Below are positions 3,135 to 64,000 of a DNA stretch of 64,000 nucleotides, piece by piece. Location: contig OZ316894.1 in NCBI GenBank assembly GCA_973895155.1, forward strand, positions 9,585,440 to 9,649,439, in the 5' to 3' direction. The position numbers and the translations under genes were made by a program. Source of the stretch: Marsupella aquatica. Its lineage: Eukaryota; Plantae; Marchantiophyta. The notes under the pieces were generated by a model. That model had not been told where the DNA came from. It worked only from the letters and a program-made list of their open reading frames with translations, and made no database searches. How positions within the stretch are numbered: the stretch's first letter is position 1; each line of letters opens with the position of its first letter.

Positions 3135-3440
3135 CATTGATTAGCCCCGTACCTGGCTGCCTGCTGCCCAATATTTTGGATGTTGGTATCAGGATAATTA
3201 CCCGGAGCAAGTTAATCTGGGCACCAGCTGCCCCTAGTCTGGCTGGTAGAGGAGCTCACCGGGTTGAGGCAGGTCACAGGTTTGAATCCTGCTATGACTA
3301 AGTGTGCTTTTGTCATTCACCCCACCCAAAAGTGGGGATCATTCACACTCTAGCTACACTTAGAAAAAGTGTAAATATGACCAAGAGACGGGCAGCAGGT
3401 GCAGGCAGCGGGCGGCGAAAAGAGTACAGGAGGCTCATTT
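3135..3440 (+). mobile_element. tRNA-like-core dispersed repeat (SINE/MITE-like), copy 1
   Basis: Box A/B-like segments (TGGCTGGTAGA...GGTTTGAATCC) followed by CATTCACCCCACCCAAAAGTGGGGATCATTCA. The same block recurs at ~17565-17850. Ends have GCTGCCC/GGGCAGC-type inverted motifs. Confidence 0.5.
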
Positions 3441-7099: not shown

Positions 7100-7750
7100 T
7101 TTTGCCTCCTTTATCATTGTTGCCCATGCCATTGTTACCCTTGCCCCTCTAGTTGCTATGCTGATGATATCCTGGCACAAAGGGTTGACCACCACAACAT
7201 CAGCCAAGGTATGTTAGTCATCATGGACCATAAAAGGATTGTCAGGTTCTTGTCCTGGTAATTGTTATGGTGGAGTATTAGGCAAATGGAGCACCTGTCA
7301 CCTCCTGTTGCAACTTGTACCAAATTCCCGGAGAGAACTAAAGCAGTAGCATCTCTCATTAATAATTATGGTCTCACCCCCTGTATGGCACCAAAGAAGA
7401 TGGACCCTTGTGGCATCACAAGGCTTCCGACATGTGCAAGAAGTAAGTAAGCTTACAAGAAGTGGATCATGATGTAAGGTCCCCATACAAAGATGTATGG
7501 GTGTTGAGAACTCATCTAAAGACCTCCTTAGATGAGGAATGGCAGAATTGGCCTGGAGCCACCATTTCCACACTTCCCTCCTGAAGAAAGAATTTGAGCT
7601 TGGACACTAAGATGAGAACAAAGAACTAGGACCTAAAAGAGAGGCAAAAGTCTCTTAAATGGAGAGATCAAAAGGTGAAAATGATCAAAAGAAAGGTGCG
7701 AAGTGTCCACCCACTTACAGGTCATATTTGATTGGGGACTATAAACATTT
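7100..7750 (-). pseudogene. Decayed fragment of the CRE-like non-LTR retrotransposon family (zinc-knuckle/REL region)
   Basis: ORF 7298-7573 (WLQANSAIPHLR...SCTCRKPCDATRVHLLWCHTGGETI) matches the element at 21040-21240 (WLQANPVIPHLR...SCTCGKPCDATGVHLLWYTLGGETI). Boundaries are approximate. Confidence 0.75.
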
Positions 7751-22000: not shown

Positions 22001-24599
22001 ACTTCAGTACTTAACTCCTTAGTGAGTTTGCTTATGGGACTTCAAGATTTCAATCTAGGGTTGTTAGATGCTAATATCTACTATTTAGTGAAACTATCCC
22101 ATGGGGGTTGGGGCAGGTCATGATATGGGGCAGCTTTCCAATTGGACATGATAAATACTTCTGTGAACTAATAACTCACTTCTATCACTAACTTGTTCAG
22201 CATTTAAGATTGTTCTGTAGCTCCTTTGGATTATAGTGATTATTGACTGGAAACTGGAACATCGGTTCCCATCAGGAATCAAAAAAAGTTTGTGTGTTAC
22301 TAGAGGCATCTGAACCCCACTTTTGGAAGATTATGTGTGTAAACTCTCCTCAGATCAAAAGAACTTTTGAGTGTAACAAGAGGCGTCTGAACCCCACTTT
22401 TGGGGCGGGTGTGTGTTAAAAAGCTCTCGGTGAGTTTTGAACCCGACACCTTAGTCGTGCGCTACCAGTAGCCCATAGACTGCACGATGCTCTTAAGCGC
22501 CTTCTTTAGTTATTTAGTCTCAGTGTGCGGGAAACTACCGGCTACCGGCAGCTACCTACTAGTGGAACAGGCGCAATGCTACTGCATTTAATGTGAAACC
22601 TGTAATTTATAGAAGGAAATAACTAATAGGTATGTGAACTTAAAAAAGACATTGACAGGCAGTTAAAGCCCAGATGGACTGATACACCTGTCCAAAAGTA
22701 CATTGTCAAAATACCATATCATTATATCTGGTCAATTTTGTCCAAAAGGTATCATTTGCTAAATCAATATTGATTGCAGGTTCCATTGTATTCTCTTTAA
22801 TGTACTCTTGTTAGAGTATTGCCCCATTGCTTCCTTATCTCTTTCTTATGGTAATTGAAATTATCTGTAGACTAAGCACTTCACATTTTACTTCGAGCAC
22901 CTCAAGTAGTTTATTCAATGGTACAAAACAAAATGAACTCAATTTTACGCAAGAATATTTCTATCTCTGTAATAGATCAAGAAAACCCCACGGAAGAGGG
23001 TACCAAGTAGCACAATGACCCATGAACCAAAGTGGAACAATTCCCACCTGGAAACTAGGGGTAAACTTGATTTCCATAGAGCATTGTTATTGTTACTGGA
23101 GTGTAGTAATTTTTGTTGTTGCCAAGCCAAAATAAATAAATAAATTGCAAAAGCCTGATTGCTATAAAATCATATTCTTCATAAAGTTTTGCACTTGTTA
23201 TAATGAGGGATTTGACTAATTTTGGTATTGCAAAGCTACCTGAGATTTTAATCTAAGGGAATATTGTTGAGAATTTTTTCAGAGAGCTCTCCTCTTGTTA
23301 TAAAGAGAGCTTGGAGTAAATTTTCTGTCACGGTGCTCAAAGAAATCATATTTTTCAAATAACGTTGTTCAAATAACATGAGTGATAGTGGCCAAAAGCT
23401 GCACAACCTCAGGATGCTCTAACAATAGGAACCTAGAATTCTGTTTGCCATTTAATTCAATGCTCTTCTTGAGAGCCTTTACTTCATTTTCGTTCATCAT
23501 TTCATCCCGCTGAGAATCATACCAAATCTAAGTGATGGAACAGGCCAGAATTTGCATATACTGACTATTGGGTTTTAATGTCTCGTCTGCAAAATTAATC
23601 TCTGAAGCGAAAGAAATCAGGAAACACGCGTATACAAACTGCTTAGAGAAAAGTCTTACTCCATCCTATAATAAATGCACAGACGTGACAGTGGACAAAT
23701 GGCTGTTTTTAGTGATTTCATGCAGAGATTAGTTCCGATTCTAGCAAATGACGACCACAAACCTGACGATGATTGAAAAGAAGGGACAACTCGAAAATCA
23801 CCCATCAAAAGAGGCTTAGATGCCACAGAAATTCACACGAAAGCATAGTCAATCTTTCTAGACTAGAGCAATTTCAATCGAAGTGCTAATCTCTGGAAAG
23901 GAATGGACCATCAAAGATACCAAACTAGCTCTGAAACCAAGGCTTGAGATGAGAATGTCGAAGGCTTCATAATTCAATGGATCTTCCTTGTACAGTCGAA
24001 GCTGCAGATTCACTCCAAAGGCGTGCAGAGACTACTAGGAAACAAAAATCTGTCGGAATTCCAGAGAACGCATCGAGGGACAAATTCTCTCCAAGGAGGG
24101 CCATTGATCCTCGATGGCAAAGGGGTGATATTGTTATTGGGGATGACCCAATAACAACATCTTCCTCTGTCGTCTTCAATCCAATTAGTACGAAGCACTT
24201 CTTACAGCACCGGAGATTCTTCCTCTCAACTCTCTGGCAATCTAAGGTCCATCAAAGCTGCTAACAATTATCGCACGAACAGTTAACTTGCAGTCGAACA
24301 ATTCGGCGAAAGCGTGAATGCCCAATCGACACCGAGAACTCTCCAACAAGTCTCGAAGGATTCCAAATGAACCAAGCTACCCTGGGTTTCGCTCACTCGG
24401 AACCGGATACTACACACAGAAAAGCTCATACCAGACCCATGAGTCATAGAGCTACTGCGGGAAAGAAACAGAAGGGTGTCCTTTGTGCCACACAATCTCG
24501 TTTTCGTCACTCTGTCAAACATGGTAAGTCTCTTTCGCACAGCTGTTTTGGTCGAGAAATTGCACTATTGTTAAAAGCTCGTACTCCACTGCCGCAACA

Positions 24600-38647: not shown

Positions 38648-39727
38648 CTATGTGCAGGCAGTGCCTGCAGCGATGGACTCCACATTCTTGGTCTGGAAGG
38701 CGAGGGCCTGGGCCTTCGCTGCCTCCGCAGAAACCAAAGCAGCATTGAACAGCGCAACGACCTTCATGTGGGAAATTTCGAACGCTCCTCGAATGTAAGA
38801 GTTGAGCAGGGAGGTTAACGCAGAGCTCAACAGCTCGTCGAAAGGATCAGTTCCATACTTCATCAATCCCTGCAATATTGTAGTTTGCCCGAACGTCTTC
38901 GTGGCCTGTTCCCCAAATGCATCTCCAACAGTCGACTCGACTGTGAAGAAACTTGGCCACATGTAAGTATGCTCGATCCAGTAGGCAGGACTGCACCCGG
39001 CTCCACCAGCCACAAAAGGCACTCCGGTGCTTGGGTAGGGCATCGTGGTAAATTGGCCAGATGTCCCTTGCTGAGGATACAGAGATTCCTGCTGAGAATA
39101 CTTAGACTGTGCGTAGTAACCTTGCTCGTATCTGTGAAGTAAATCGGTCTGCTGATTTGAGTCCTGATAAACCAAACTGTCGGTCGTAGTGGTGGGCTCC
39201 TGCGAAGCTCCAGCGTAAGTGGACTTCGGGTGATAGCCTTTCTTGTATCGACCTTTTACGGGATCAAACGTGAACTCGTCAGGCTGACTATCTGGCACTG
39301 GGTAATAACCATGCTCGTACCTGTGGGCCAAGTCATCCTGATCTGCATTTGTCTGCTCATCTGAGGTCTGAGAAACCAAACTGACTCCGTTCGTGGTCTT
39401 CTGCACACCTCCAGCATATTCAGAGTTCGGGAAATAGCCCAGCTTGTATCGACCTTCTTCGCGATCCATCGTGTACTCGTCGGGCTCATTATCTGGCTGG
39501 TTTCCAGTCGTATACTCCGTCTTCTCTGTGGTCGGGGTGGTAGTGGCATACTCTGGAGGGAGATGAGTGGTCGTCTCTGCAGGATCCTTCGAAGTGACGT
39601 TCAATTTGTCGTCGGTTTGATAGTATGAAGTCGCCGAAAACTTTTCGTGAGTTGTCGCTTCAGCCGTCAGAGCTGAATCTCCCAGGACGAAAACCATCAA
39701 CGCCAATGCAATCCACCTCCGACCCAT
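38648..39727 (-). CDS. Protodermal factor 1 (PDF1)-like secreted cell-wall protein
   Basis: Signal peptide MGRRWIALALMVFVLGDSALTAEA and a PDF1-type C-terminal domain (GCSPAYWIEH...WP...TVGDAFG...LLNSY...FNAALVSAEAAKAQALAFQTKN). Single exon with an internal Tyr-rich duplication. Confidence 0.8.
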   Translation of the reverse strand: MGRRWIALALMVFVLGDSALTAEATTHEKFSATSYYQTDDKLNVTSKDPAETTTHLPPEYATTTPTTEKTEYTTGNQPDNEPDEYTMDREEGRYKLGYFPNSEYAGGVQKTTNGVSLVSQTSDEQTNADQDDLAHRYEHGYYPVPDSQPDEFTFDPVKGRYKKGYHPKSTYAGASQEPTTTTDSLVYQDSNQQTDLLHRYEQGYYAQSKYSQQESLYPQQGTSGQFTTMPYPSTGVPFVAGGAGCSPAYWIEHTYMWPSFFTVESTVGDAFGEQATKTFGQTTILQGLMKYGTDPFDELLSSALTSLLNSYIRGAFEISHMKVVALFNAALVSAEAAKAQALAFQTKNVESIAAGTACT

Positions 39728-40118
39728 ACTGGCAGCTTGGCCCACAGGACCAATATTCTGGCACGCTTCCTGGCGTCCGCTTCTCCTGTGTGCAGCGTGC
39801 TTGCTCACTCTACAGACCCAATAATCTGAAATGCTTCCAGACCTCCTCTGCTCCTGCGTGCATCTTTAGCATGGACTTTGAGCTGCGTGGGGTGTAGCTT
39901 TAGCGTGAGTGGGATGCAGCTGTGAGCTTGTAGTGAGCTGAGCCGCTCGGCGCGATCTCCACAACCCACTCGGATCAGACAAGTCTCCGACAGAATAGGT
40001 CGAGTGCGCGGGGGACCCGCAAACTTTGCTTTCAGCCCGCAGTTCTCGCCGTTGGCGCAGCTTGGAGTCAACCAATCTGTCTTGTCTTCTTCTTCCTGAG
40101 ACAAGCTCCGCAAGAGCC

Positions 40119-41507
40119 ATGGCGGAAGAACAGCGAAACGGAGGGGCGAGTCAAGGGCGTCACAACCATGGAGGAGTCCCACCAGTAAGCCTTTACGGGA
40201 AACGTAAGAAAGCACAAGGTATGAAGGTTACAATTTTGCATTCTCTTCCATTGAATGCTGTAACCACACTGCAGCTCAGAAAATCTACTGTTCTCGCCGT
40301 CTTGATCTGTCTATACGTCCTCCTCGTGCATGCTGCTCCCGCTCCCACGGGCGCTACAAGCACAAATGCCATAGTCTCAATTGACTCCCGACTTACATAC
40401 CTTCTACCCGCGGGATTCGTTGGCAACCTCACCCTGAATTTCATCGACACAGTGACCAGCGATGGCACCATCGCGGGATCGTTCTCAGCCGCGAAGAAGG
40501 CACCGTTCATCTCCTACGATCCCGAGTTTCTGCAGATAATCGGCGAAACTCCAAACTCGCCACAGCTCATCGCGCATAGAGACGAGCTCTTCGCCGACGA
40601 GGCAGGCGTTTGGGTCCCGGAAAAGAACCAGGTCTGGTTCACGAGTTTCACGGTGAATGACGCCAGCAATCTCTCGATCCTCGACCTCGGCACGTCGAAG
40701 ATCTTCAGGCCGAACACCAGCATTCCAGTCGTCACTCCAAATGGCGGATACTACTTCGAGGGCAAGGTTTACTTCACCGGCCAAGGCACCACCCCGGTGG
40801 AGCCCTGCATTTACGCCATCGACATCCACACCTATGAGACGACGATTGTCATCAATTCCTACTTCGGTCTCCGCTTCGGGGGTCCCAACGACGTGACCTG
40901 GGCCAGGAGGAAGAGTGGAGATGGTAAGAAGAGCTTCATGTTCTTCACTGATGAACCGGAATCGTATATCTACGCTGGTGGTCTGCCCCCGGTGCTCCCC
41001 AATGCCGTCTGGAGGTATGATCCGCAGGACGAGAGCATTGTCCCTGTCATAAGCCGAGCAGACATCCTCGCCCCGAACGGTGTGGCTGTGAATGCGGATA
41101 GCTCGAAGCTGTATGTGACCGATACGCCATTTGCTAACGTGTATTTGCCCGCCGACACGCCGAGCTCGGGATCCACGGCCATCTTCTCCTTCGACCTCGA
41201 CGACGATGGCTTCCCGGTGAACAAGCGAATGCTCGGGATATCGAGAAGTGGCATTCCAGATGGCATCAAGGTCGACGACGCAGGAAGGATATGGACTGGG
41301 GAGGGCGAAGGGATTGTGGTGCGGAATTCGAGAGGCAAGGTCCTCGGTGTCTTCAACTCCGAGTTCTTTCTGGAGAATTATCAGAATGAACCTGCCATAG
41401 CGAATTTCGCACTTGTCGATGACACGCTCGTTGTGCTGGCTATGCAGAGGGTCTGGACATTGAAGCTGGCCCAGAGGGTCGTTTCTCCTGATAGGTATCG
41501 AATGTGA
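40119..41507 (+). CDS. SMP-30/gluconolactonase/LRE-family beta-propeller hydrolase, probably secreted
   Basis: Motifs EAGVWVP, PNGG, GGPNDV, FFTD, PNGVAVNADSSKLYVTDT, IPDGIKVDDAGRIW and a hydrophobic N-terminal segment. Possible in-frame 90-bp intron 40184-40273; alternative ATG at 40221. Confidence 0.88.
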   Translation: MAEEQRNGGASQGRHNHGGVPPVSLYGKRKKAQGMKVTILHSLPLNAVTTLQLRKSTVLAVLICLYVLLVHAAPAPTGATSTNAIVSIDSRLTYLLPAGFVGNLTLNFIDTVTSDGTIAGSFSAAKKAPFISYDPEFLQIIGETPNSPQLIAHRDELFADEAGVWVPEKNQVWFTSFTVNDASNLSILDLGTSKIFRPNTSIPVVTPNGGYYFEGKVYFTGQGTTPVEPCIYAIDIHTYETTIVINSYFGLRFGGPNDVTWARRKSGDGKKSFMFFTDEPESYIYAGGLPPVLPNAVWRYDPQDESIVPVISRADILAPNGVAVNADSSKLYVTDTPFANVYLPADTPSSGSTAIFSFDLDDDGFPVNKRMLGISRSGIPDGIKVDDAGRIWTGEGEGIVVRNSRGKVLGVFNSEFFLENYQNEPAIANFALVDDTLVVLAMQRVWTLKLAQRVVSPDRYRM

Positions 41508-41544: not shown

Positions 41545-41920
41545 TTTGGAAGATGCATCAATGAATCGTGTTCGGGAGATTTATGTCCAACTTTTGTGGC
41601 AGCAGTCATGATGGACATTTGACCACTCATCCCTCGGTTCCCAACAGATACTTCAATCTGGTGGGTTTGCAAGATGAAATGCATCAATGAATTGTGTTCA
41701 GGAGATTAATGTCCAACTTTTATGGCAGCAGTCATGATGGACAGTTGACCTCCCAATCCCTCATTTCCAATCAGATACTTCAAATTGGTGTGTTTGCAAG
41801 TTAAGATGCATCAATGAATCGTGTTCGGAAGATTAATGTCCAACTTTTATGGCAGCAGCCGTTGATCTCCCAATCCCTCGTTTCCAATCAGATACTTCAA
41901 TTTGGTTGGTTTGCAAGTTC
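41545..41920. repeat. Three-copy ~130-bp tandem repeat downstream of the lactonase
   Basis: ATGCATCAATGAAT.GTGTTC...ATGTCCAACTTTT.TGGCAGCAG...CAGATACTTCAA...TTTGCAAG x3. Confidence 0.85.
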
Positions 41921-42719
41921 TGGGGCTCACAGAGGGAGGGACACAGGGTGCATTCTTCTGGATTTATTGGCACAGGAGGGACTGTCAAAAAGAGGCAGCA
42001 CCTCCTACTGTGGCTCAACTGATAAGACACATCAAAATTTGAGCCTTGACTAGTTGCCAAGAAAGGAAATCATGTGCCAAATCACCGCTTGTAAGGTGAA
42101 TAATGTCTACCAACAAGCGGCATCCATGCAATTTTCGGTATCGGATTGTTGCCATGTAAGGCTATCATTTGCCAAATCAACACTTGAAAGGCCAATCAAA
42201 TGGCGTCCATGCAAACTCCTGTATCTATGTGTTGCCTGTCAAGGAACTCGATCAGACACCAAGTGGCCCCTCGTCTGGTGCATGATGTCTATTATCAGGT
42301 TGGCGTCAGTCCTCTGTATCCACAGTGCCCACGTACAGATTGAGTTTCATCGAAGGGATGATTGGAATTTTCAGCTATACCGCATACTGGAATGATGAAC
42401 TCTTCTGTCTAAAGTGAACGTCCAGACATCCCTCTTTACATAAACAATGTACAGTGAGATCTGGGTGCGAGGAGCAGAAAATTTGAAACCGCTGATCTCG
42501 TCCATACAGGATACCAAATGGTAGAATGCTCGGATTCCACCGGATGTATGATGACCACAGGCTGGCGTACAGTATCCACGGATCCCACGGCAGTAAGAGC
42601 CGTGGACTACCCTGAATGCCCGGTTTAATCTGACGGGCACCTTGACGCCTTGTCGGGCACGTCAAATCGTCAAATGACGGCCCGAAAACACGCAATTTGA
42701 CGTATATTCCTGAAGATTC

Positions 42720-43320
42720 TCCCGAACGAACCCCGACTTCCCCGGACCTTTCGCGAACACCTCCCGAGCACCCCGGACCTGAACCCGAACTCCCCCTGAC
42801 CCGAACCCGGACTCCCGGGCCCTTCCCGGACCCTCCCCGGACCCTCCCGGGCCTTTCCCGAAACCTCGCCGGACCCTCCCCCGAACACTCCCCGGACTCT
42901 CGGGCCTTTCCCGGACCCTCCCCGGACCCCCACCCGAACCCTCCCCGGACCCCCACCCGAACCCTGCCCGGACCCTTCCGGGGCCGGCCGGGGTAAAGGT
43001 GGCCCGGGGGACGGGATTCGGGGAACCGGGGACGGGGGGCATTCGGGGAAGAGGATTCGGGGAACCGGGGAAGGGGGGGCGGGAAAGGGGGGCCGGGATT
43101 CGGGGATTTGGGGAACGGGGTTCGGGGAACGGGGTTTGGGGAACGAGGTAGGGGGTTCGGGGAACGGGGTTTGGGGAACGAGGTAGGGGGTTCGGGGAAG
43201 GGGGTTCGGGTAGGGGGTTCGGGGATGCGGGGAACGGGGTTCGGGGAACGGGGTGCGGGGTTCGGGGAACGGGGTGCGGGGTTCGGGGACGGGGCTCGGG
43301 AATTGGTGGCCGGGGAAGAG
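42720..43320. repeat. Left subterminal GC-rich repeat field
   Basis: C-rich CCCG(A/G)ACC units (42720-42975) switch to G-rich GGGGTTCGGGGAAC units (42980-43320). Confidence 0.85.
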
Positions 43321-43529
43321 TTAGAGGCGGGATTAGGGTTAGGGGCGCGAGATTAGGGTTAAGGGAGGCGCAATTAGGGTTAGGATCAAAGATTAAGAGT
43401 TTTAAGAGAGGATAAGAAGTAGATGATTTAGTATAAGTAGGAATAACTAATTCATTTCACTAATCCAAAGTCTCATTGTGTTTCTCTCTCTTGTGGTTTA
43501 GCATTAGGGAGAGATCGGAGGGATACATT

Positions 43530-43885
43530 GGAACTCTTGTACGCGCATGCTTTGAGCTCGGCTCGGTCTGCGATAATTCGTACGAGAAGTTCCTTATATC
43601 GCCTTAACAACTTTGCATCATTGTTTTGTTTGAAAGTGAACTACTTGCGAGTAAAGAGATACCCATGTGCATATGCTTAGAGCTTTGGCTCGGTCTATGA
43701 CATTTCATATGGGTATCACGATTTCTCATACATATGTTCACTTCAAAGATAAACTATTGTGAAGTTATAGATATTACATAACATAGGTTGAAGTAGGGAT
43801 GTTGACAAATATAAGAATTTGGGAAACTTTCCTGCGCATGCTTTGAGCTTAGGCCCAGTCTGCGATAATTCAGGAAAGTAACCCA
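43530..43885 (+). promoter_or_regulatory. Three tandem conserved stem-loops upstream of the transposase ATG
   Basis: Core CGCATGCTTTGAGC-loop-GCTCGGTCTGCGATA inside different closing stems at 43530-43593, 43658-43717 and 43820-43885, with compensatory substitutions. Confidence 0.75.
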
Positions 43886-43960
43886 TTGTACTATATTTGT
43901 TATATTCACAAAATCAAAAGAATCAACCCTTTTATTTTTTTACCATTGAGAGTCGTAACA

Positions 43961-46863
43961 ATGTCCGATGAAGAGGATTCGCATGAAACTGGATATCATT
44001 CCACTACTCCCAGGCCTGGTCCAACTCGTGTGCAAGAACACCCTTCAAAACAATCTCCAGTGTGGAGATATTTTGAACGATGTGATGCGCCTTCAACATG
44101 TCATGATGTCAATCGTATCTATCGAAGATGCAAGTATTGTTTAACATACGTTACTCATCATGCAACACGAGCAAAGGCGCATTTGATGGGAAACATCCAA
44201 AAAGGGGATGCGCCCCCTTGCATGCAACTCTATGGTGTCGTCGATTTGGATGCCATCAACATTATGTACAATGTGATAAAGGTTCCACCGACCTTAAACT
44301 ACAAACGACGAGATGGAAGTCATATCTTGCGGGATGTGAGAGGTCGTAGGCCAAGCGTTGGAAGTTCATATTCGCAAGCATCCACACGAGGGTCAAACTA
44401 TGTTGACATGGATGATACACATGTAAGGGAAGGAGATAGGCCAGTAAATCTTCCTAACCCAATTATGGATGCCTATCAAATTCCAAATAGAACAAATTTG
44501 GATAAGCTTTGGGCGAAAGCTTTCTACACCAATGGTATTCCATTCAATGTTTCAAATAATCCTTTTTTTCGAGAAGCAGTCATAGAGACTTCAAAAGGGA
44601 TTGTCAATGGTTATTCTCTACCTACGATGCGAAGTTTGCGATTGAAATTATTGGAAGACAGTAAGGAGGATCTCACAAAGGACATGACGCAAACTTTAAA
44701 GGAGGCAAAACCTTATGGGTATTCTCTTTCTTCAGATGGATGGGAAAACGTCCGAAGAGAACCTTTGATGAATGTCATGTTGTTGACTTCTAAAGGTGAC
44801 TTCTTCTTGGATAGTTGGAATGCTGCGCAAGCTGACAAGAAAGATGGGAAATATCTTGGCGACATGTGGTTGAAATACATTGAGGATATTGGTGCAGATC
44901 ATATTATTCAAATTGTAACTGATGGAGCACCCGCAAATCGCGTAGCAGGTTGTGAGGTAGTCATGAAAAAGTATCCTCATGTCACTTGGAGCTGGTGTGC
45001 TGCCCACGTGTTTAATTTGCTGCTAGAGGATATGTGTGGTCACAAGCGTGTAGTGGTAGATGATGTTGGACAGAATCCATTCCAAAAGATTTTTAAACGG
45101 TTGAGGTGGATAGTAAAAGCAGTTTCATCATCGCAAAAGCTTTCTGCAATATTTGCAAGAAAATCTCCTGACAAAAAACTGTTGAATCCAAATGCAACTA
45201 GATTTGCGACCAATTTCCTAATGGCACAAAGAGCGTTGGAGCTAAGAGGAGCTTTACAACAGATGGTCATTGATGATAATTGGCAGTCTTATCGTGATAG
45301 ACTTCCATTGCGACCAAAATCAGCTGGACACATGACGAGGGGAAAGGCAGACGAACTTAAAATGTGGATACAGCAAGATACATTTTGGGTTGAAGTGAAG
45401 GATACAGTTAAATTCTTTACTCTGTTGGTCAAGATGTTGCGAGAATTTGATGGTGATTCTCCGCAATCAGGTTGGTTGTATTGGAGTTTGAAAAGAGGGA
45501 TTGATGTTTTGAAAGCAAGCATGGAGGATTGTCCATTGGTAACAGAGGTATTGAAACCGAAGATACTAAAAGTGTATTTGGATCGAAAAAAATCTCTTAC
45601 CACTGATTTCATGCTAGCGGCAGCATATCTCAATCCCCAAATGTTTTTTGATGAGGACATAGATGTCGCTGGAGATCCAGAACTCTACAGGGTTTCAGTG
45701 AATACATTGCTAGATATTCAGAACAACAGGTGAAGGAGGGGATCAACCATGATCGCGACGTCAGAGAACTTATTTCTGCCATCCACAGTCAAGCCATTGA
45801 CGCCCAAAAAAAAAATCCCAACACATCAATAGCGATGGGAGCCGCCCAATCAAGTATAGGTAATGTCAGTCCAGCAGAGTGGTGGCATGCGTATGGTGCA
45901 GATTATAAACATTTGAGAATCCTGGCGCGAAGAATCTTACACCAAAAAGTGTGCGCATCAGCTTGCGAGCGAAACTGGAGTTCGTATGGATTTATACATT
46001 CCAAAAGTCGCAATCGATTGACAAATGATCGAGCAAAAGATTTGGTGTTTGTATTTACAAACATGAGGGTAGAGAAAGGGCTCACAAATGTTCGAAACCC
46101 GCATACGTTTATATATGAACGTTATGACCAAAGAAGAAGAACAAATGATGGACCTAGACCTATCTCCATGGAGTTGTGCAGCAATGAAGAGTACGATGCA
46201 ACACGTGCGGCTCTTGGTGAAGAAGATGTCGAAGATTATGATACAATTGATGATGCTGATGAATTGCTACACGGATTTTCACTGGATAAGGATAGTGAGT
46301 TCTTGACTCGTATTCCACCAGATACAGACATCACTGCTGCAGAGGAATGGGAGAATGAAATGGATTTGGAGATGTATCCTACAATTGATGAATCGCAAAT
46401 CCAAGACGAGGAAGATGCATCACTGGACAGAAACTTTGTGATGCCTTCCCAACCAAGGTCACCTTGGTCGAACTTTGCGAATGATGTTGACACAAGCAGA
46501 CCATATTTCAACGAGCAACGCACAGGCACAGCAGGGCATCCGACGAATGGAAGGACATCAACCTTTTTTCATGGATACAATCATGAAGGTCAAACTTCAA
46601 ACGACCCACATGCAAACTGGCAACACCATGCAGGTCCACCCTTGAATGCGTATGCAGGGCCAAGTGTCATGAATCCATATACGTCGAACAGGCCTATTGG
46701 CCTTGGTGGGTTTCGAGGAATATCATCATTTCAAGAAACATCGCACAATGTTCAGTCACACAATCGTGATCCACTCAGTTGGGGCGACAAACAAGACGAG
46801 TGGAATGCGCTTTTGTGCAAAAATCTTAACAACAATGCACGAAATTTCTCTTCACAGCCTTGA
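43961..46863 (+). CDS. hAT transposase (BED zinc finger, DUF659-type RNase H core, hAT dimerisation domain), one frameshift
   Basis: BED finger (SPVWRYF..CKYC..KAHL), catalytic D (SDGW), D (VTDGA), CAAH, TRFAT, then WW..YG and CERNWS (E). An apparent 1-bp deletion near 45683-45690 splits it into ORFs 43886-45733 and 45730-46863. Confidence 0.92.
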
Positions 46864-47104
46864 AGCATCTTTTCATTAGGATAATATCAAGTGTTGCTAC
46901 TCTTATATTGTCGTATCTGACATAGACAAAATTATAAACAATTATATTTTTTGTAACATGATTGTATTGTCTTGCAGTGTGTTTATTATTGTACAATGAT
47001 TGAATAATTTATTTGTATTTGCATTTGAGAATGCCATAGAGACACACCAACGCAACATGTTTTCCAAATCTCCAACACTGACTATTTCAAAGTACCTTGT
47101 TGTT

Positions 47105-48430
47105 GGCCATAGCAGCCGTAGTCCATACTAGCCCCCTCCATTAATTGGTTAGTTCATTTCACTATGCGAAGATTTAGTCCAGCAATAGAGCACCGTCATA
47201 TTCAATAATAATGAGGTCGAGAGGACCTCATTATTGGACCTGAGAATGTCATTGCTTGAATAAACCTTCTCGTAATAAAATAAACTTAGTTGAACTTGAA
47301 GTTGTAATGAGGGCCCATTTTTGGGGTGGGTGAATGTCGTTGACCGTAGCAGCTGCACTACTTGAAGTTGGGCAGAGTTTATATGACTATGAGAGAAGTT
47401 GTGAAATGAACACATCGCCTACATAATCAGTAACCTTCTCATAATCATATAAACCCCGTTCAACTTGAAGTTGTAATGAGGGCCCATTGGTGGCCAAGGA
47501 GAGCAATGTCATGATGATGATCAGACACGGTCACGGGGATTCCGCAAGATCGGTCACCAAATTGATATGCAGACGCAAAATACAATCACCAATTTCAAGT
47601 CAAAGTTCACCCGTTTATATCCTCTCCTGTCCGAATTCCAATTCGAGCTTGGACACCCTCTCGTCAGCAGGTCTCCACCCTTTCAGTTGCTCCTCACGCG
47701 AACCTCTGGATTCCTCAAACACTATGAATGATGCATTGAAATAAAATAGGTTCGAGGATTCTAGAGACTGCTATCTTGGTTTGCGTGAAGAGCAACTGCA
47801 ATGGTGGAGACCAGCTGACGAGAGGATGTCCAAGCTCGAATTGGAATTCAGAAAGGAGAGGATATAAACATGCAATTGTGCGAATTAATGTCATAGGCCG
47901 TAGTAGCCGTACTCCAGTAATTGGTCAGTTCATTTCATTATCAGAAGATTTATTCAAGCAACGGAGCACGAACATATTCAATAATAACAAAGTCAGGAGG
48001 ACCTGAAATATTGACCTGAGAGTGCCATTGCTTGAATAAACCTTCTCATAATGAAAAAAACTCTGTTCAACTTCAAGTTCTAATCAGGGCCCATTTTTGG
48101 GGTAGGCAAATGTAGAGGCGTTGGCCTCGGTTTGCATGCGCATGAATGTCATTGGTCGTAGCAGCTACGCTACTTGAAGTTGAACAGAGTTTATTTGAGT
48201 ACGAGAGAAGTTGTGAAACCAACGGATCGATGACATACTCAGTAATTTTTTGCTCGAAGGACCTGAAAATTTGACCTGAGAGTGCATTTGCTTTCAGAAC
48301 TTCTCTCGTACTCAAATAAACTCCGTTCAACTTCAAGTTGTAATGAGGGCCCATTTTTGCGGTGGGCAAAGGAGTAGGCGTTGGCCTCGGTTCGCATGTG
48401 CATGAATGTCATTGGCCGTAGCAGCAATAG
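47105..48430. ncRNA. Cluster of five pre-miRNA-like foldbacks (putative small-RNA precursor array)
   Basis: Arm pairs 47151-47186/47251-47286, 47360-47400/47432-47471, 47613-47704/47778-47869, 47927-47961/48028-48062 and 48172-48222/48288-48338. Four units share a scaffold ending ...AACTT(G/C)AAGTT.TAAT.AGGGCCCATT. Expression is not demonstrated. Confidence 0.65.
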
Positions 48431-48930
48431 CGGAAAAAATTATGAAAGACAGGAAAAGTGAGTGGACTTAGGTATACATCCTTCTACAAAATCATTCTCA
48501 ACTTGGGCGGCTAAAACCATTGCGATGTTGACTTTGTTGAACTCATTGTGCTACACGATCTCCTTTTGGAAATGATTTCAGAGAAGGATCAGTACCTGAG
48601 TCCACTGTGCTACCGTCTCTCATCACGTCTATTTTCCTCATACTTGTCCAAAAATATGATTGTGAGCCCGACAATATGCTTCCAAAACCTATGGCTGATT
48701 GGAGGATGGAATATTCTTACGAAAATACACATTCTCCAAAAGGCGACGCCATGCCCCCAATGAAAAATATATGTACTCATCGAGATATGCAATGTAATGT
48801 CACTCCAAAATCTCTTTACCAATTACAAGTTGAAAATAATTGTCAAAGAGGATATGCCGCTTCTATTTTAACAAAATGTCTCTAATAGTAACTACATGAA
48901 AATAACATCAAAATGTAGAGACTATTGGTT

Positions 48931-50928
48931 TTAGTTCCTTTTGTTGTTATTGTCAACAGCTTCTGTTTTCACCTCTGCCTGTTGTTGACGTCGTCGATGG
49001 CGCTGAATGGATCGTTGCAAATTTTGCTCATCTATTGATGGCTGGTTGGCTGCCGCATATTGTTTCCACTCATCGAGTCGACCACTGAATAACAACCTGT
49101 CAAATTCCCCATCTGACAAATTATATTCATTGATTGTGAAATGTTCAATGGGAGTTTCATCTATTTGCATCGCCGGTATAGTATCTTCAGTCATATCTTC
49201 AGTGTTTTGTTGAGTCTCCATTGATGGCATTTGCTTCAACAATCCTCGTTGCTCATACTCGCGTTCATGAAATGGTGTGCGACACCAACATTTTCGGCTT
49301 TTCTTCAACCATTTAGACAAGCAAGCATGATGCCATATATGACCGCAGGTTCCCAACATGGAAACAGATTCAGGGCCCCAAGGATATAGGCACCAAGTAC
49401 ACTTGTCATCCTTTTCACGAACAAATGCTGCCATAGTTTCATCATTTTTCCACTTATCAAAAAACCTATCAATACCTTCCGCGTCAACCTCCACATCTGG
49501 AAAAAGGTTGCTGTGCCCTGTAGGATCTATGATTTGCATGTTAACAAAATTTGGCGGCGATAATTCACCTTGCCCTTTGTTTGACCTCATCCCCAAAGCA
49601 CCATTGTTAAATTCTTGCACCTCTTCGTGAAGATTTGATATGATGATTGCTTGCATTGCAAGTTCACTTTTAAGATCATTAATGATCTTGTCCTTCTCCT
49701 CAAGTCGTGCCAGTTCATTGCATTGACGCTCTTTTTCAGCAAGTTGTTTTGTCAGCTTATTGATTTCTTCCATCTTGTCAAACAATTGACACTTGTACAA
49801 CATCACTTCCGAATTGGTCGTCGGCTCGTTCTGCTTCTTCTCAAGTGATCTCATCTTTATATCAGCTTGTTGCAATTGTGACTTGAACTTTTCGATGCTG
49901 CCACATTCACATAGCTCCACTACATACTTCGTGCGGAGATTTGTCTCAATCACCTCTGCAACATCTGCCCCCAAGCTCTTGCATATGTTGTGCAGGTTGA
50001 ACTTATCCTTGTTAGCATCAGTAACATTGTTGTTCTTTGCATGTGGAGTTCTACTCCCAACACCTACAAGGATTGGTTTTTTGGTGTGCGTTGACTCCAC
50101 ATTGGTTGGTGGTGCTGCACGGTCAGGCATGGAGACTCGAGGAAGTACAGCCGCTTTCCCCTTCTCATGCGCATATCCCTCCCCAGTGTCATCTAGCTTT
50201 CTTTTGGATCCCTTGTTGGAAGTCTCCATTGAAGGGTCCTTTGCAATAGTTGTATTCCTATTCGTTGCAATCGCAACCACTGATGGATGCACCTGATGAG
50301 TCAGCTTGCCAGCACTGTTTTCCCAACGGTAATCCACCTTCCACTTGAGAATGAATTCAGCAATCAGACATCGGATAAAAGGAGGGTAAACGGAACTCAT
50401 TTTCGTTTGGGCTTTGTGTGGAGCAAACTCTCGATATCGTTGCTGCCAATGTGATTTAACACCTGCATGTGTTACTTTGGACATGGTGAATTTTTCTTGC
50501 GCCCATGATCTTGTTGCCCAAAGATCCGGATCGTGAAAAACTTGTTGTGCTAATGGCCAAAAGTCTTTCTTTGGCATCAACATCTCCAATTCCTTTGCAT
50601 TCATGGCCCATTCGTCATGGGGAGGATTTACATTGGGCGTTAATATACTCCATTCATCCTTCATACCCTCATCTTCCCATCTTCTTGTGTTTGGCGTCGG
50701 TGTTCCATCAACCTTGGGTTTAGCCTCATAGTGAATGCCAATGGTTGTAAGATTATCCAACACATTATTACGAAGAGCTTCATCGTCACAATAGGATCCT
50801 TGACCATCTTGCATGGTAAGATGTTGTGTTGTGAACTCTTTGTCTTCATCATCAGAAGACAATTCCCATCGTCCCATGTTTGCGATGTGTACAAAAGGTC
50901 TGCGATATTTGACAATGTACAAACACAT
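48931..50928 (-). CDS. Transposon cargo: coiled-coil plus RING-H2 protein (putative E3 ubiquitin ligase)
   Basis: Uninterrupted 665-aa ORF (second ATG at 50877), heptad-rich middle region, and CTWC-x14-CGHIWHHAC-x10-CWC ligand pattern. Confidence 0.82.
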   Translation of the reverse strand: MCLYIVKYRRPFVHIANMGRWELSSDDEDKEFTTQHLTMQDGQGSYCDDEALRNNVLDNLTTIGIHYEAKPKVDGTPTPNTRRWEDEGMKDEWSILTPNVNPPHDEWAMNAKELEMLMPKKDFWPLAQQVFHDPDLWATRSWAQEKFTMSKVTHAGVKSHWQQRYREFAPHKAQTKMSSVYPPFIRCLIAEFILKWKVDYRWENSAGKLTHQVHPSVVAIATNRNTTIAKDPSMETSNKGSKRKLDDTGEGYAHEKGKAAVLPRVSMPDRAAPPTNVESTHTKKPILVGVGSRTPHAKNNNVTDANKDKFNLHNICKSLGADVAEVIETNLRTKYVVELCECGSIEKFKSQLQQADIKMRSLEKKQNEPTTNSEVMLYKCQLFDKMEEINKLTKQLAEKERQCNELARLEEKDKIINDLKSELAMQAIIISNLHEEVQEFNNGALGMRSNKGQGELSPPNFVNMQIIDPTGHSNLFPDVEVDAEGIDRFFDKWKNDETMAAFVREKDDKCTWCLYPWGPESVSMLGTCGHIWHHACLSKWLKKSRKCWCRTPFHEREYEQRGLLKQMPSMETQQNTEDMTEDTIPAMQIDETPIEHFTINEYNLSDGEFDRLLFSGRLDEWKQYAAANQPSIDEQNLQRSIQRHRRRQQQAEVKTEAVDNNNKRN

Positions 50929-51064
50929 TTAGCACAATTTTGGGCATTCACGACAAAGTTTGATAGAATATTATCAACAAAATGCAGAACATTGTAATTG
51001 ACATACAATGAATAAACATATAATCGTTAAGGTGACCTTTACAAAATTGTGTAAACCCTAATCT

Positions 51065-52720
51065 CTAATCTCTAAGATATGGACTGTTGTGCAAATGCAA
51101 TGTGCAATCTGGAAACGTTCGAACTATCTTCAAACTCCAAAAAGCACAATCCATTCTTTTCTTGGCATCCGTGGCCATCATTTCACGGATTATGATATCC
51201 AATTTGGGGCCATGCACTTGTGCACTCCAACCCCTCCCCAAAAACCGTGAACCCTTAGACATTCCATCCCAATTCTCTGTCAACAATGTCTCAAAAATAT
51301 TCCCCAAAGCATATATATCGGTACTTTCACTAAACTCGACAGGGGTAGGTTGAACAAGCTCCGGAGCCAACTGTGGAAATTGTTTTTGGTATGTTGCTGC
51401 TTTTTCTGTTGCTGTGGGCCACATCCGATTAGCTGGTAATTTGCACTGTGATTTATGCTTAGACAAGCCAAAATCACATAAACCAACATACACCTTAATA
51501 GCCACATCGTGCTCGTGATCGAAATGAAGAAGGATGTTTCCAAAGTGAAGATCACAATGAAATCGATCATGCTCATGCAAGTATTGCAGTGTCTCCAGCA
51601 AAGCCAAGGCGATTCCCAACCGGTTCTCCAACAAGAGTTTCTTCTCCGAAATAAACTTGAAATCAAGGTCCGTCGTGATCTGTGCCTTCCCCTTGCTCTT
51701 TGACGATATGCCGCACTTATCAATAAAGCTACCCAAGTCACCTCCATTATAGTGATCGTAAATAAGTTTTGGCGGATCCTCAATAGTCAACGCAAGAGCT
51801 CCAACGATTCCCTTATGATTCAGTCCTCCCATAAGCACTTCTTGTAATGCGTCAGTTCGTCTCTTATGCTTGTCTCCATCCTTGAACCGCTTTGCGACTA
51901 AGGTCACGTTGACGGGAATGAGAGGACAATGTAATATACGACAAGTGTATACCTCTCCTTGGATTCCTTTCCCAATGCGACGTGTGTTGTGCACCTGCTC
52001 AGGTTTAAGAAAATGGATACTCCTAACCTCTGGAACTACACGCGATGGACGTGTTCCTTTTCGAGCACTTTTGATGCTGACATCCCCAAAGTGCACAATC
52101 TCGTTAGCATATTTGACATTGCTATCAGATTTTGCCATTGCCAACTCCTTACTCCACTTCACTAGCAATTCTCTCTTGTGTGTGTACATCCCGGGGTTTC
52201 CAAGCAATGTAGTGTCACCCTCTTCCACTTTGGCTGCCAAATTATCCCAAACATGCTTCTCCAAGTTGAGTGCCAAATTTTCCAGAAATCCTCCCGGTTT
52301 CTCAGTTTCATCTTCAAATGACTTCATTTGCTCTCGTGTGAAATTGTCTTCCTTTTGTACACTTTCCCGCATACAACGGGTTATCTCACCAAGAAAGTTT
52401 TTGTATCCTTTCTCTCCGTGTCTTGTGAACTCCCTCTCGAACCCGTCCACCCCATACTGTTTCGGTTGAGTGTAGCGATAAAGTATCTCTTTCCATATCG
52501 ACACTACCACATTGTGTCGAACTTGTTTTGCCTCTTCGTTTGCCCCCTTCCGTTTTCGTTTCCCGGCCACTTTGCTAGAATTCCTAGCATGTTCGAGAGT
52601 GTTTCGAGCGTTCTTCAATGCATCCAGAGCAACAAGATTCGGCTCATATCCCTCATTCACATGTTTTGTGATCATCTCCAACACTTGCCTATACTCTAAA
52701 CTAAAATTTTCGATGACCAT
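51065..52720 (-). CDS. Transposon cargo: protein kinase (TKL-like, non-RD) with N-terminal helical extension
   Basis: Uninterrupted 551-aa ORF with GKGIQG loop, VAK lysine, alphaC Glu, HCDLHFGNIL, DFG, APE and DIYALG. Basic KRKRK patch near the N-terminus. Confidence 0.9.
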   Translation of the reverse strand: MVIENFSLEYRQVLEMITKHVNEGYEPNLVALDALKNARNTLEHARNSSKVAGKRKRKGANEEAKQVRHNVVVSIWKEILYRYTQPKQYGVDGFEREFTRHGEKGYKNFLGEITRCMRESVQKEDNFTREQMKSFEDETEKPGGFLENLALNLEKHVWDNLAAKVEEGDTTLLGNPGMYTHKRELLVKWSKELAMAKSDSNVKYANEIVHFGDVSIKSARKGTRPSRVVPEVRSIHFLKPEQVHNTRRIGKGIQGEVYTCRILHCPLIPVNVTLVAKRFKDGDKHKRRTDALQEVLMGGLNHKGIVGALALTIEDPPKLIYDHYNGGDLGSFIDKCGISSKSKGKAQITTDLDFKFISEKKLLLENRLGIALALLETLQYLHEHDRFHCDLHFGNILLHFDHEHDVAIKVYVGLCDFGLSKHKSQCKLPANRMWPTATEKAATYQKQFPQLAPELVQPTPVEFSESTDIYALGNIFETLLTENWDGMSKGSRFLGRGWSAQVHGPKLDIIIREMMATDAKKRMDCAFWSLKIVRTFPDCTLHLHNSPYLRD

Positions 52721-52933
52721 GTTTTCCCTTCACAAAAGGAATATGTGAGGGAGGAACAAGATCTTACCGGGATTTAAATAAAATCCTTCCAATAAGGATT
52801 CAACGACCAACCTGAAAATTACAAGTCGTATTGTTATTATCTTTTCCCGGTTTATTTCTCCCATGCATTATGTATTTTTATTGCACACATGATTTTAATT
52901 ACCTTTCTATATACAACAATAAAAGAGAAAGAC

Positions 52934-53283
52934 AACACTTGTGAAATATCGCAGACCGAGTGGACGCTCAAAGCATGCGCACAAAAGTGTTCTTTTCTTT
53001 CAAAGTTGTTATATTCCTGCTTCGACATATGTGATTTGGTGTCTATAACTTAACACTCATTTGTATTTCAAGTAAAAACATTCTCGGCGAATCGTGGTAT
53101 CCATGCAAAGTATCGCAGACCGAGCCGAAACTCTAAGCATGCGTACATGGATTCCTCTATCTCCGCAAATGTTTTACTTAATGAACAAAGGAGACTAAAT
53201 TGTTAAGGTGATATTAAGAAATTCTTGTACGGAGTATCGCAAACCGAACCGAGGCTCAAAGCGTGCGCGTACAAGTGTTTCTT
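52934..53283 (-). promoter_or_regulatory. Three tandem conserved stem-loops upstream of the kinase ATG
   Basis: Reverse-complement copies of the same core at 52934-52991, 53096-53155 and 53216-53283, each with its own closing stem. Confidence 0.75.
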
Positions 53284-53411
53284 TATATCCCTCCATTTGG
53301 CTCTAAGGTTAAGGTTTAAAACACAAAAAAAACTTAAAAAATCACAAAACAAAACACAAACAAATAAAAACAAACCAAAAATCAAAAATAAAAACCAAAA
53401 CCAAACACTTA

Positions 53412-54115
53412 CCTCCTCCTCCTCCTCTTCTCTTCCTCCTCCTCCTCCTCTCCTCCTCCTCCTCCTCTCCTCTCCTCTCCTCCTCCTCTTCCTCCTCTCC
53501 TCCTCTCCTCCTTTCTGCAAAACCAAAAATGAGGAGGGAGAGGAGGGATCTCCTCCTTTTATCCTCTCCCGAGCCCCCGACCCTTTCCCGGCCGGCCCCA
53601 TCCTCCAACCCTAAATCGCGAAACCCTAATTCTTCGAGCCTCAATCCCGAACCCCGAACTTCCAAACCCCGAACCGGACCCCGAACCCCGAACCGGACCC
53701 CGAACCCCGATCCCCACCCGGACCCACCCCGGCCTCCCGGACCCGAACCCCACCCGGACCCCACCCCGAACCCCCACCGAGCGCCTCCGCCCCGGGCCCG
53801 GACCCCACCCGAACCCCCCGTACCTCCCGAACCCGAACCCCTCGGACCCGGACCCGAACCCCACCCGGAACCCCACCCGAACCCCCCGCACCTCCTCCTC
53901 CCGGACCCGAGCCGCACCCGGACCCCACCCCGAACCCCCACCGAGCGGACCCGAACCCCACCCGGACCCCACCCCGAGCCCCCACCGAGCGCCTCCGCCC
54001 CGGACCCGGACCCGATTAGTCACCCGGACCCCCACCCGAACCTCCTCCCGAACCTCCTCCCGAACCCGAACCCCGAACCGGACGTTTCCTTTCCCGGACT
54101 GCTTCCGAACCCGGG
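53412..54115. repeat. Right subterminal repeats: (CCT)n tract and C-rich CCCG(A/G)ACCCC units
   Basis: CCT/CT microsatellite at 53412-53510, then dense CCCGAACCCC / CCCGGACCCC repeats at 53570-54115. Confidence 0.85.
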
Positions 54116-54826
54116 TGCCGGGTTGTCAATTTGCCGCTCTCAAACGCCCAGTTTGACGGGCAAGGTCAAACCGGGCCTGAATGCGTGATCTGCACCTCAT
54201 AAAGGAGAAGGATCATATAAAACATCCATTGTTTGTAAATAGAAGCCTCTCAAGAAATAACAGGCTTGTGTGGGCGAAAAGGAGAGCAAGTTATAGCAGA
54301 GAGACAAGGGATAGATGTATGCTGTGGAAATCCTATTGATTCCAATGAGCATCGGAGAAATTGTTCTCTGTATGCACGGAGTAGAAGTTTTGAGCCACAG
54401 CACTGAGGAACACCAAACTGTGAGGCACATGCTGTCGAATCTGAATAAACGCATTTAACAAAGTGCAGAATATACTGTAGCTTTGTAACGGCAAAGGAAG
54501 GGTTCAGAAGGAAAGTCATACAAATGTGAGTACTAAAGCCTTAAATTTTGGCAAAAGGAGAGCAATGGAGAGCTTTCAATGACGTGTCAAACAGTGTGCG
54601 ATCTACGCTTTCTGCAAATATATTCAATTGTTAAAAACTCCACTCATGCACTTTAGTGTTGGAAGCTTGGTTACACTATCAGGTGAAATACCTCACATGC
54701 ATCAGTCAGCTAGTGAGTCTACAGTAGTTTTAATGATTGTAGTACCGTAGAATAGTTGGAGACCATATCATGGAATTTCTTCTAATTTATGGATACAAGT
54801 TTGCTGCGAAAGTGGAGCACAAGATT

Positions 54827-54995
54827 TTGGCAGAGTGAGATGGCGTACGAAGGAACTTTGTTGAGTCGTGCTGGGCAAACTCTTGGCAGAGTGAGATGGC
54901 GTACAAAGGAACTTTGTTGAGTCGTGCTTGGCAAACTCTTGGCAGATTGAGATGGCTTACATAGGAACTTTGTTGAGTCGTCCTGGGCAAACTCC
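54827..54995. repeat. Three-copy ~56-bp tandem repeat
   Basis: TTGGCAGA.TGAGATGGC.TAC..AGGAACTTTGTTGAGTCGT.CT.GGCAAACTC x3. Confidence 0.85.
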
Positions 54996-57937: not shown

Positions 57938-58286
57938 GCAAATTCGCTTTAGTCGAAGAAGTGGATGCTATTTTGACGAAGGCAGCAAACTTAAAAACAT
58001 GTCCTGTATACACTTTTCCCAGTTACCCGTTTTCCTGCATCCTATATACATCAAGACAAATTCGCTTTAGTCGAAGAAGTGGTGATTTTGAAGAAGGCAG
58101 CAAACTTGAAACATGTCCTGTATACACTTTCTCAGTGACCCGTTTTCCTGCATCCTATATACATCAAGACAAATTCGCTTTAGTCGAAGAAGTGGTGCAA
58201 TTTTGAAGAAGGCAGCAAACTTGAAACATGTCCTGTGTACACTATTCCCAGTGACCCTTTTTCCTGCATCCTATATTCATCAAGAC
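57938..58286. repeat. Three-copy ~120-bp tandem repeat upstream of RCCR
   Basis: CAAATTCGCTTTAGTCGAAGAAGTGG...GAAGGCAGCAAACTT.AAACATGTCCTGT...CCTGCATCCTATAT.CATCAAGAC x3. Confidence 0.88.
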
Positions 58287-62785: not shown

Positions 62786-63639
62786 CTCTGTTACCTCAAC
62801 GATCCGCCTTTTTGCTTCACAAACTCCCGAGCGAAGTTAGGACTCCCCCTAACAAAATTGTTGTCCGTCCGTCCGCAGGCAGAAATCGCATGGGACAAGG
62901 GGAAAAACCGGGCAAGGAGAAAAACCCTAATGTTTTCAGTTGCCTATTAAACCATAATAACGCGAGTCCAGATTGCCCCAGAGACGGTCAGTCAAGTGAC
63001 CTGCAGGAGCCATCATTGCCGAAATTTTAGCACGCAAAATTGAAGATCACTGGATGCTCAAAAAGCACGTGCACAGACAGTGTTCATAAAGCCAATATTT
63101 CCGTGCTGAGCCTTGGAAAAATGCCTGACCCAAACGTAGTGGCGAGCGAAAACGAGACAGCGCGTTAGTAGAGCTCAGATTTCTTTGCCCGGGAGCTTGA
63201 GACAATGCTTCGACCTAATTGCAAACGACTTAAATGAACGAGACAAGACTGTTCATAGTTTAGAGCAAAAGATTGCTGCACAGAGCTTGGACAAATTGCT
63301 TCAACCTAACCCACTGTGGTTGCGAACGAATTCACGAATCGAGCATGCTTCGACCTAATTGCGACCGGCTTGAGTGAGCGAGACAGAGCATATATTTCTT
63401 CAAACCAAAAATTGCTGCGCAAAGCTCTGAAGAAGCGCTTCAATCTCACCTCCTGTGATTGCGAACGAATTGGCGAATTGGCGAATTGGCGAATCGAACG
63501 AGCGCTCTGCTCGCAAAGAAGGAGCGCGAGAACGAGAGAGAGCACGACGAGAAACGCAACACTACTGCACCAAAACAACAATAGCAACGAGAGAAAACGC
63601 TACTGCACTATCAAATGCGTTCGCTCCACTTCTTCGCCT

Positions 63640-63915
63640 CCTCCTCGCAGGACCTCTCTCGGACGGTTTACGTGTATACGTGCTCAGTTCGCCCCCTCCT
63701 TCCCAGATAGTACACTAGTTACAAACGAAACGTCTCCTCCTCGCACGACCTCTCTGGGACGCTTTACGTGAATACGTGCTCAGTTCGTCCCCTCCTGCCC
63801 AGATAGTACATTAGTCACAAAAGAATCGTGTCCTTGTCGAAGGACCTCTCTCGGACGGTTTACGTGTATACGTGCTCAGTTCGTCCCCTCCTGCCCAGAT
63901 AGTACACTAGTTACA
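63640..63915. repeat. Three-copy ~95-bp tandem repeat upstream of RPT2
   Basis: GACCTCTCT.GGACG.TTTACGTG.ATACGTGCTCAGTTCG.CCCCTCCT.CCCAGATAGTACA.TAGT.ACAA x3. Confidence 0.88.
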
Positions 63916-64000
63916 ATAGAAGGCACGAAAGTTGTGTCATGCCTTTCATTATTTTTCTTTGGAATTTTCTCAGATGGTTTTAAACTAGGGTCATATTCCA

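Follow-up and report, generated by a model that had tools for sequence, protein, structure and literature searches.

A hAT DNA transposon of the liverwort Marsupella aquatica holds, in the gap between the convergent 3' ends of its transposase gene (plus strand) and of a RING-finger cargo gene (minus strand), an array of four paralogous fold-back units (A, B, D and E), a fifth start consisting of a leader only, and an unrelated hairpin (M). We propose, with a probability of about one half, that this array is a polycistronic miRNA-like precursor yielding several different guides that act in trans. The window analyzed here is a stretch of 64,000 nucleotides of genomic DNA, and all coordinates refer to it.

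Results

A hAT transposon with cargo genes

The element spans 11.6 kb (42619-54175) and is bounded by terminal inverted repeats (TIRs) and by a perfect 8-bp target-site duplication, CCTGAATG, an 8-mer found on the plus strand only at 42611 and 54176, where its left (42611-42618) and right (54176-54183) copies lie. Both inverted ends start with CCCGGTTT. The left end (42619-43960, plus strand) comprises the TIR (CCCGGTTT...), GC-rich subterminal repeats and promoter-proximal repeats, and the right end (52721-54175, minus strand) comprises promoter-proximal repeats, GC-rich subterminal repeats and the right TIR. A repeat of about 40 nt is present in three copies upstream of the transposase (43517-43872) and in three inverted copies upstream of the kinase (52942-53294); a 10-mer from it recurs at 48126 in the trailer of unit D (4 matches against 0.15 expected, for a pattern picked post hoc), and the motif common to this trailer and to the promoter-proximal repeats at both ends is possibly a shared binding site. 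Short TIRs with an 8-bp duplication, together with hAT transposase domains, place the element in the hAT superfamily. The preliminary description had taken the hairpins to be carried by a transposon, and the TIRs, the duplication and the transposase do enclose them.

The transposase (43961-46863, plus strand) contains a DUF659 domain (Pfam, E 2e-30) and a hAT dimerization domain (Dimer_Tnp_hAT, E 5.9e-11), and is spread over two frames with a change near 45690 (45640-45740), a place where two homologues (P0041 and P0042) have a single ORF. The uninterrupted frame of an autonomous hAT copy is absent from this copy, the break being either a mutation in it or an assembly error. The element resembles hAT transposons of the Ac/Tam3 type in its short TIRs, 8-bp target duplication, subterminal repeats and DUF659 and hAT dimerization domains, but departs from them in its length of 11.6 kb, its two opposite-strand cargo genes, its hairpin array and its transposase split over two frames.

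One cargo gene (48931-50877, minus strand) encodes a 648-aa protein with an N-terminal domain, a coiled coil and a RING-type finger, the last called from a zf-RING_2 match (E 6.9e-06) slightly below the curated cut-off. The other (51065-52720, minus strand) encodes a 551-aa protein kinase. The nearest named relatives of the transposase come from the liverwort Calypogeia fissa (75-81% identity), as does that of the RING protein (50%), whereas named flowering-plant transposases share 22-35% identity with this one. Since the kinase has eight homologues at 48-73% and the RING protein has 19 matches among cluster representatives, the cargo is a family trait. The N-terminal domain of the RING protein (about residues 75-210) is conserved and modelled at pLDDT 70-90 within the protein, and poorly (pLDDT 45) when modelled by itself; it has no Pfam or Foldseek match. 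For the RING protein, Foldseek gave nothing at E 0.001, VIA-align only generic coiled coils (Z < 7) and the Atlas search no usable match. No VANC-like Pfam match was found in the element's proteins. By alignment, no relatives of the RING protein were present among 129 pattern matches in metagenome contigs, and 116 such matches in viral contigs included none of the kinase. The openly accessible literature yielded no account of the element, and a search for bryophyte DNA transposons with kinase and RING cargo found none; as far as this search goes, the large cargo-bearing hAT family is undescribed.

To the left of the element, one uninterrupted frame of 502 aa (39999-41507), in which an SMP-30/gluconolactonase domain is encoded, looks like an intronless, possibly foreign-derived gene, and is followed by three 127-bp repeats (41550-41919). 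A 405-aa minus-strand frame (38648-39865) has a signal-peptide-like start and internal repeats, with no significant Pfam match and a C-terminal domain that presumably resembles plant protodermal-factor proteins. The window also contains a degenerate non-LTR retrotransposon reverse-transcriptase region (19673-21771; RVT_1, E 0.00014) with an inverted partial copy (6965-7672), a receptor-kinase-like leucine-rich-repeat exon on the minus strand (13132-13761), and three-copy tandem repeats at 54827-54994 (56 bp), 57939-58286 (113 bp) and 63638-63921 (96 bp).

Five hairpins between convergent genes

Four related units and a truncated start near 48405 had been reported from this stretch, and all are present in place, as are the four 3' arms quoted for them, each of which occurs once (at 47265, 47434, 48041 and 48300). 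Unit A (47100-47330) has arms at 47151-47186 and 47251-47286, with 28 Watson-Crick and 4 G-U pairs over 36 positions on the minus strand; unit B (47333-47490), with a short loop, has arms at 47360-47397 and 47434-47471; and unit D (47887-48100) has arms at 47927-47964 and 48025-48062. The probable strand of all three is minus. Unit E (48145-48360), also assigned to the minus strand, folds equally well on both, and its arms (48172-48222 and 48288-48338) place the core on a 15-bp lower stem. The pairing previously given for E, 48 of 51, was reproduced, and that for D, 31 of 35, holds for the first 35 nt and becomes 33 of 38 Watson-Crick pairs over the whole arm. The leader motif of the fifth unit (48405-48425), to which no strand is assigned, has no hairpin behind it. 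The preliminary description was right about the four units but overlooked the strongest hairpin of the array, M, which lies in its middle (47613-47869, strand uncertain, tentatively minus) with arms at 47613-47704 and 47778-47869, 84 Watson-Crick pairs in 92 positions and a stem unrelated to those of A, B, D and E.

A trailer motif common to the units occurs four times in the 64-kb window against 0.02 expected, and the leader motif, with at most three mismatches, occurs four times against 0.00 expected, in B, D, E and the 48405 start; the leader of A is more diverged and is visible in the alignment. Unit B looks chimeric, with an E-like 5' arm, a 3' arm that begins like those of A and D, and a deleted loop, and the 3' arm of D can also pair with the 5' arm of E. 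AT-rich tracts resembling 3' UTRs separate the array from the stop codons of the transposase and the RING gene. Units B (47331-47420) and E (48146-48405) have an ATG at their start and similar short plus-strand peptides; this peptide is not conserved, D having an early stop.

Each unit folds back on itself, as claimed earlier. When both strands were compared with dinucleotide shuffles, the minus-strand stems lay far beyond chance: z was -5.5 for A, -4.9 for B, -6.6 for D and -12.4 for E, against -2.3, -2.8, -6.3 and -10.1 on the plus strand, and -19 to -21 for M. In sliding folds over the element all windows with z below -4.5 fall in the array, and of the nine inverted-repeat pairs of at least 40 nt in the 64-kb window the three with short spacers all lie within it. 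When the 1.37-kb array is folded as a single RNA, all five hairpins are predicted to form locally, with mean pair probabilities per stem of 0.78-0.98 on the minus strand against 0.15-0.91 on the plus strand.

The hairpins have dimensions described for plant miRNA precursors. On the minus strand, the core duplexes of A, B, D and E, examined in three assumed 19-bp registers per unit, contain 0-2 mismatches, 0-3 G-U pairs and no bulge per register, within the limit of five mismatched nucleotides in Table 1 of PMC12594335, and the stems of all five hairpins are gapless over 36-92 positions, in agreement with another structural criterion of that table. Arm-to-arm spans of 136 (A), 112 (B), 257 (M), 136 (D) and 167 nt (E) lie within the 50-300 nt given for hairpins in Table 2 of the same source. 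In small-RNA reads, Table 1 asks for one 20-24-nt miRNA/miRNA* duplex with 2-nt 3' overhangs, supported by 10 reads or more at a precision of 75% or higher. The stem is extended downward in B and E only, whereas A and D extend toward the loop, with no lower stem and a 14-16-bp upper stem. A 15-bp lower stem under the core, as in E, is the spacing for base-to-loop cutting by a Dicer-like enzyme, and a long, nearly perfect stem like that of M is more typical of loci giving mixed siRNAs. A scan of the window with Rfam 15 gave no match at the gathering threshold; matches below it were to generic long-stem MIR models, the best being MIR7533 on M (80.7 bits against 230), a score driven by the long stem.

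Compensated change in the stems

The preliminary description held that the partner arm changes with the core while pairing is kept, and the alignment of the four units A, B, D and E (36 pairs, 130 cells) bears this out. In it 92.3% of the 130 cells pair, RNAalifold recovers the core helix, and nine of the 36 pairs have changed on both sides among the paralogues, a number matched by none of 500 shuffles and by slid controls only to the extent of 0-3, with controls that ignore the relatedness of the units and a structure derived from the same four sequences. Seven of the nine double-changed pairs separate unit E, with its single wobble among 51 pairs, from the rest, and these seven could represent one or two copying events. 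DNA-level copying of arm onto arm explains the double changes of E as well as RNA selection does. Copying between inverted arms can occur at the DNA level by template switching or gene conversion; our search for literature on a mechanism of arm-to-arm copying found none.

The contrast between a constant scaffold and a variable stem survived only as a trend, as core variability is not significantly above that of the scaffold and not above that of the loop. In the four units, 10 of 39 columns vary in the 3' scaffold, 9 of 22 in the core on each arm and 28 of 63 in the loop, and a count by hand gave 7/22 for the core against 4/31 for the scaffold (p = 0.17). In ordinary MIRNA paralogues the mature region is better conserved than the loop, a pattern that the four units do not display (9/22 per core arm against 28/63). 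The variable stem columns have no codon periodicity by eye and thus give no sign that the stems track a conserved coding motif.

In unit A, four C-A mismatches of the plus strand become G-U on the minus strand, as had been noticed, against one of the opposite kind. Across the units this lean toward the minus strand is significant when cells are counted (16 against 5, p = 0.027) but not when wobble sites shared by paralogues are merged into independent sites (11 against 5, p = 0.21). Wobble mismatches number 21 and all other mismatches 12.

Modules in other copies

Four DNA-contig runs with two organism labels contain 83-92% of the region's words, the best of them perhaps from the same source as the window, and among the eight public runs listed no RNA run matched the array region. 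In all four, the depth of near-identical contigs exceeds that of variant contigs roughly tenfold, a sign of probably several recent copies but no measure of copy number. Contigs joining distant parts of the array (47814 to 47135 in two runs, 48293 to 47432, 48501 to 47599 and 47862 to 48402) make it appear that other copies carry the modules in different orders, each side of a joint being a match of 24-64 letters at 80% likeness, and in other copies the arms of M adjoin the array scaffold. Differences between contigs and window were taken from 40 of 138 difference rows; the window's letters at 47585, 47850 and 47904 are unlike those of nearly all contigs, and with the letter that is usual at 47850, M regains a pair. 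Opposite-strand joints were left out of the covariation counts, as were paired variants within M, because a contig from one arm can align to the other.

In three further runs of low depth, a 151-nt contig with another organism label spans unit E with six differences, all on the loop side (48231-48290), and none in 80 letters of the lower stem (p about 0.01 if differences fell at random); at a depth of 2.1, this contig may be a single read. Another contig in these low-depth runs folds back on a D-like unit. Scaffold patterns had no match in viral contigs and none in metagenome contigs.

Candidate targets and sources

No good site for the arm-derived 21-mers was found in the rest of the element, and none beyond chance in the 64-kb window. 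Self-targeting was rejected as chance: among 20 arm and strand sets the best penalty was 4.0, for a plus-strand arm of unit A matched to the left subterminal region, and 100 trials with shuffled arms got as far as 4.5. The target scan also returned short stretches at 3316-3337 and 22391-22416 that resemble the end of the array trailer and are probably chance or another repeat. A literature search for six 12-letter stem motifs gave only an unrelated match.

Several origins were considered and set aside. Derivation of the units from the element's kinase fails because the peptide likeness of B and E to the window's kinase is matched by 21 of 150 shuffles, and the best of the homologues tried by 5 of 150, with no DNA similarity. 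That the stems are aimed at a conserved DNA-methyltransferase motif is unsupported, resting on a loose likeness of five residues in one unit without codon periodicity. Those open frames of M that were compared with Pfam and PDB gave no match, against the idea of a captured coding fragment, and the flanks of M (47612 and 47870) have by eye no direct repeat, that is, no target-site duplication of its own such as a MITE would have. A scan for bacterial promoters, irrelevant for a plant, remained at chance level.

Discussion

In the reading that we favor, a minus-strand RNA, probably formed by read-through from the RING cargo gene, would span the array and fold into five separate hairpins, from which a Dicer-like enzyme would release different guides of 21-24 nt, to be loaded into Argonaute. 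As no good self-target was found, these guides would act on host genes rather than on the element itself. Tandem duplication, together with shuffling and the copying of one arm onto the other, is the probable origin of the units and would renew the guide sequences while the stems stay paired. In Marchantia, pre-miRNAs are often located within UTRs of protein genes, with 36 of 95 in known genes (PMC9291395), which fits read-through from a RING gene whose stop codon, on the minus strand, precedes stem E by about 590 nt.

This reading has partial precedents. Rice miR820, which is carried by CACTA elements and represses OsDRM2 (PMC3459959), resembles the array in being a miRNA-like fold-back structure inside a class II plant transposon, multiplied with it; here the putative precursor lies within a hAT rather than a CACTA element, in a liverwort rather than in rice, alongside kinase and RING cargo, and comprises five tandem hairpins of two unrelated stem types with differing stems where miR820 has one. 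The miR820 fold-back targets a host gene, whereas for the array no target-gene homology was found when the frames of M were compared with Pfam and PDB and the 64-kb window was scanned. The array shares with plant polycistronic MIRNA clusters (PMC9291395, PMC2812943, PMC4860694) several hairpins in about 1.3 kb that form independently in one predicted RNA and a mixture of related and unrelated hairpins, but differs in lying within a transposon, in a presumed mature region that is not its best-conserved part and in having no Rfam match at the gathering threshold; for Marchantia, the review PMC9291395 gives only one polycistronic miRNA locus. With structural features in the range of plant MIRNAs but without the conservation of the mature region that is typical of them, the array cannot be filed as a MIRNA cluster. 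Transposon-encoded anti-silencing is known from VANDAL elements with VANC and from an Athila6-derived siRNA against UBP1b (PMC6719617); as described there, VANDAL elements likewise carry accessory cargo beyond the transposase and internal repeated motifs, whereas in the present element that cargo comprises hairpins besides a kinase and a coiled-coil/RING protein, with no VANC-like Pfam match.

The fold-backs might instead be a by-product, rebuilt between convergent genes by duplication, deletion and arm-to-arm copying with no selected RNA, an account that we regard as possible though doubtful. Pairing in E (48/51) and M (84/92) is almost purely Watson-Crick, as expected after recent copying, and the chimeric look of B, the module orders that appear to differ between copies, a core no more conserved than the loop and a strand bias that is not significant per site are all consistent with such an origin. 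Yet four units of two diverged types are all still paired in 92% of cells, wobbles exceed other mismatches and lean to one strand, the single cross-organism contig has no difference within the lower stem, and the dimensions of the stems are miRNA-like. Function is, moreover, compatible with arm-to-arm copying, by which guides could plausibly be renewed and the stem kept.

Transcription of the hairpins could also end in imprecise dicing, giving mixed 21-24-nt siRNAs rather than defined miRNAs; these would act mainly on the element family itself, where the array region would be methylated or silenced in a self-limiting manner. The 92-bp near-perfect stem of M invites this explanation, as do the position of the array between two convergent 3' ends, where both strands may be transcribed, and the related modules in many contigs of the same runs, which would offer many matching loci; we nevertheless consider it unlikely, for A, B and D contain mismatches and G-U pairs, as is typical for miRNA duplexes, and the element offers no good site for the arm 21-mers, at a best penalty of 4.0 against 4.5 for shuffled arms. 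Very unlikely, in our estimation, is a role in cis alone, in which the fold-backs would end or insulate the convergent transposase and RING transcripts or stabilize the RING mRNA and produce no functional guides. The placement of the array exactly between the two 3' ends would suit it, along with a plus-strand T5 run behind three of the four units and the 10-mer that the trailer of D has in common with the promoter-proximal repeats at both element ends, but the 3'-UTR-like tracts already lie between the stop codons and the array, and five long stems with diverging sequences would exceed the need. Runs of T that interrupt E on the plus strand and D on the minus strand misfit a uniform Pol III unit, and the idea of Pol III units was rejected on the same ground.

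A bolder version of the proposed guide-producing precursor, which we think quite unlikely, is that this liverwort hAT family carries a counter-defence kit of kinase, RING E3 ligase and modular miRNA cassette that tracks host silencing genes in an arms race, its guides renewed by shuffling and arm-to-arm copying in a reused scaffold.

A review of 2019 (PMC6719617) counted no more than three anti-silencing systems encoded by transposons, miR820 among them and all from flowering plants, and the RNA case among DNA transposons in that count was a single miRNA. If our proposal is true, a DNA transposon, a multi-copy hAT, maintains its own diversified small-RNA cluster in a liverwort, and a selfish element would possess a multi-guide gene-silencing kit. 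Some viruses maintain diversified small-RNA clusters of their own. Should no RNA be made, the array would be of minor interest, yet a large cargo-bearing hAT family would still be undescribed. Because copies of the element appear to differ in both the order and the sequence of their modules, the family would allow a direct test of whether compensated stems result from RNA selection or from DNA-level copying, and it could show new miRNAs arising.
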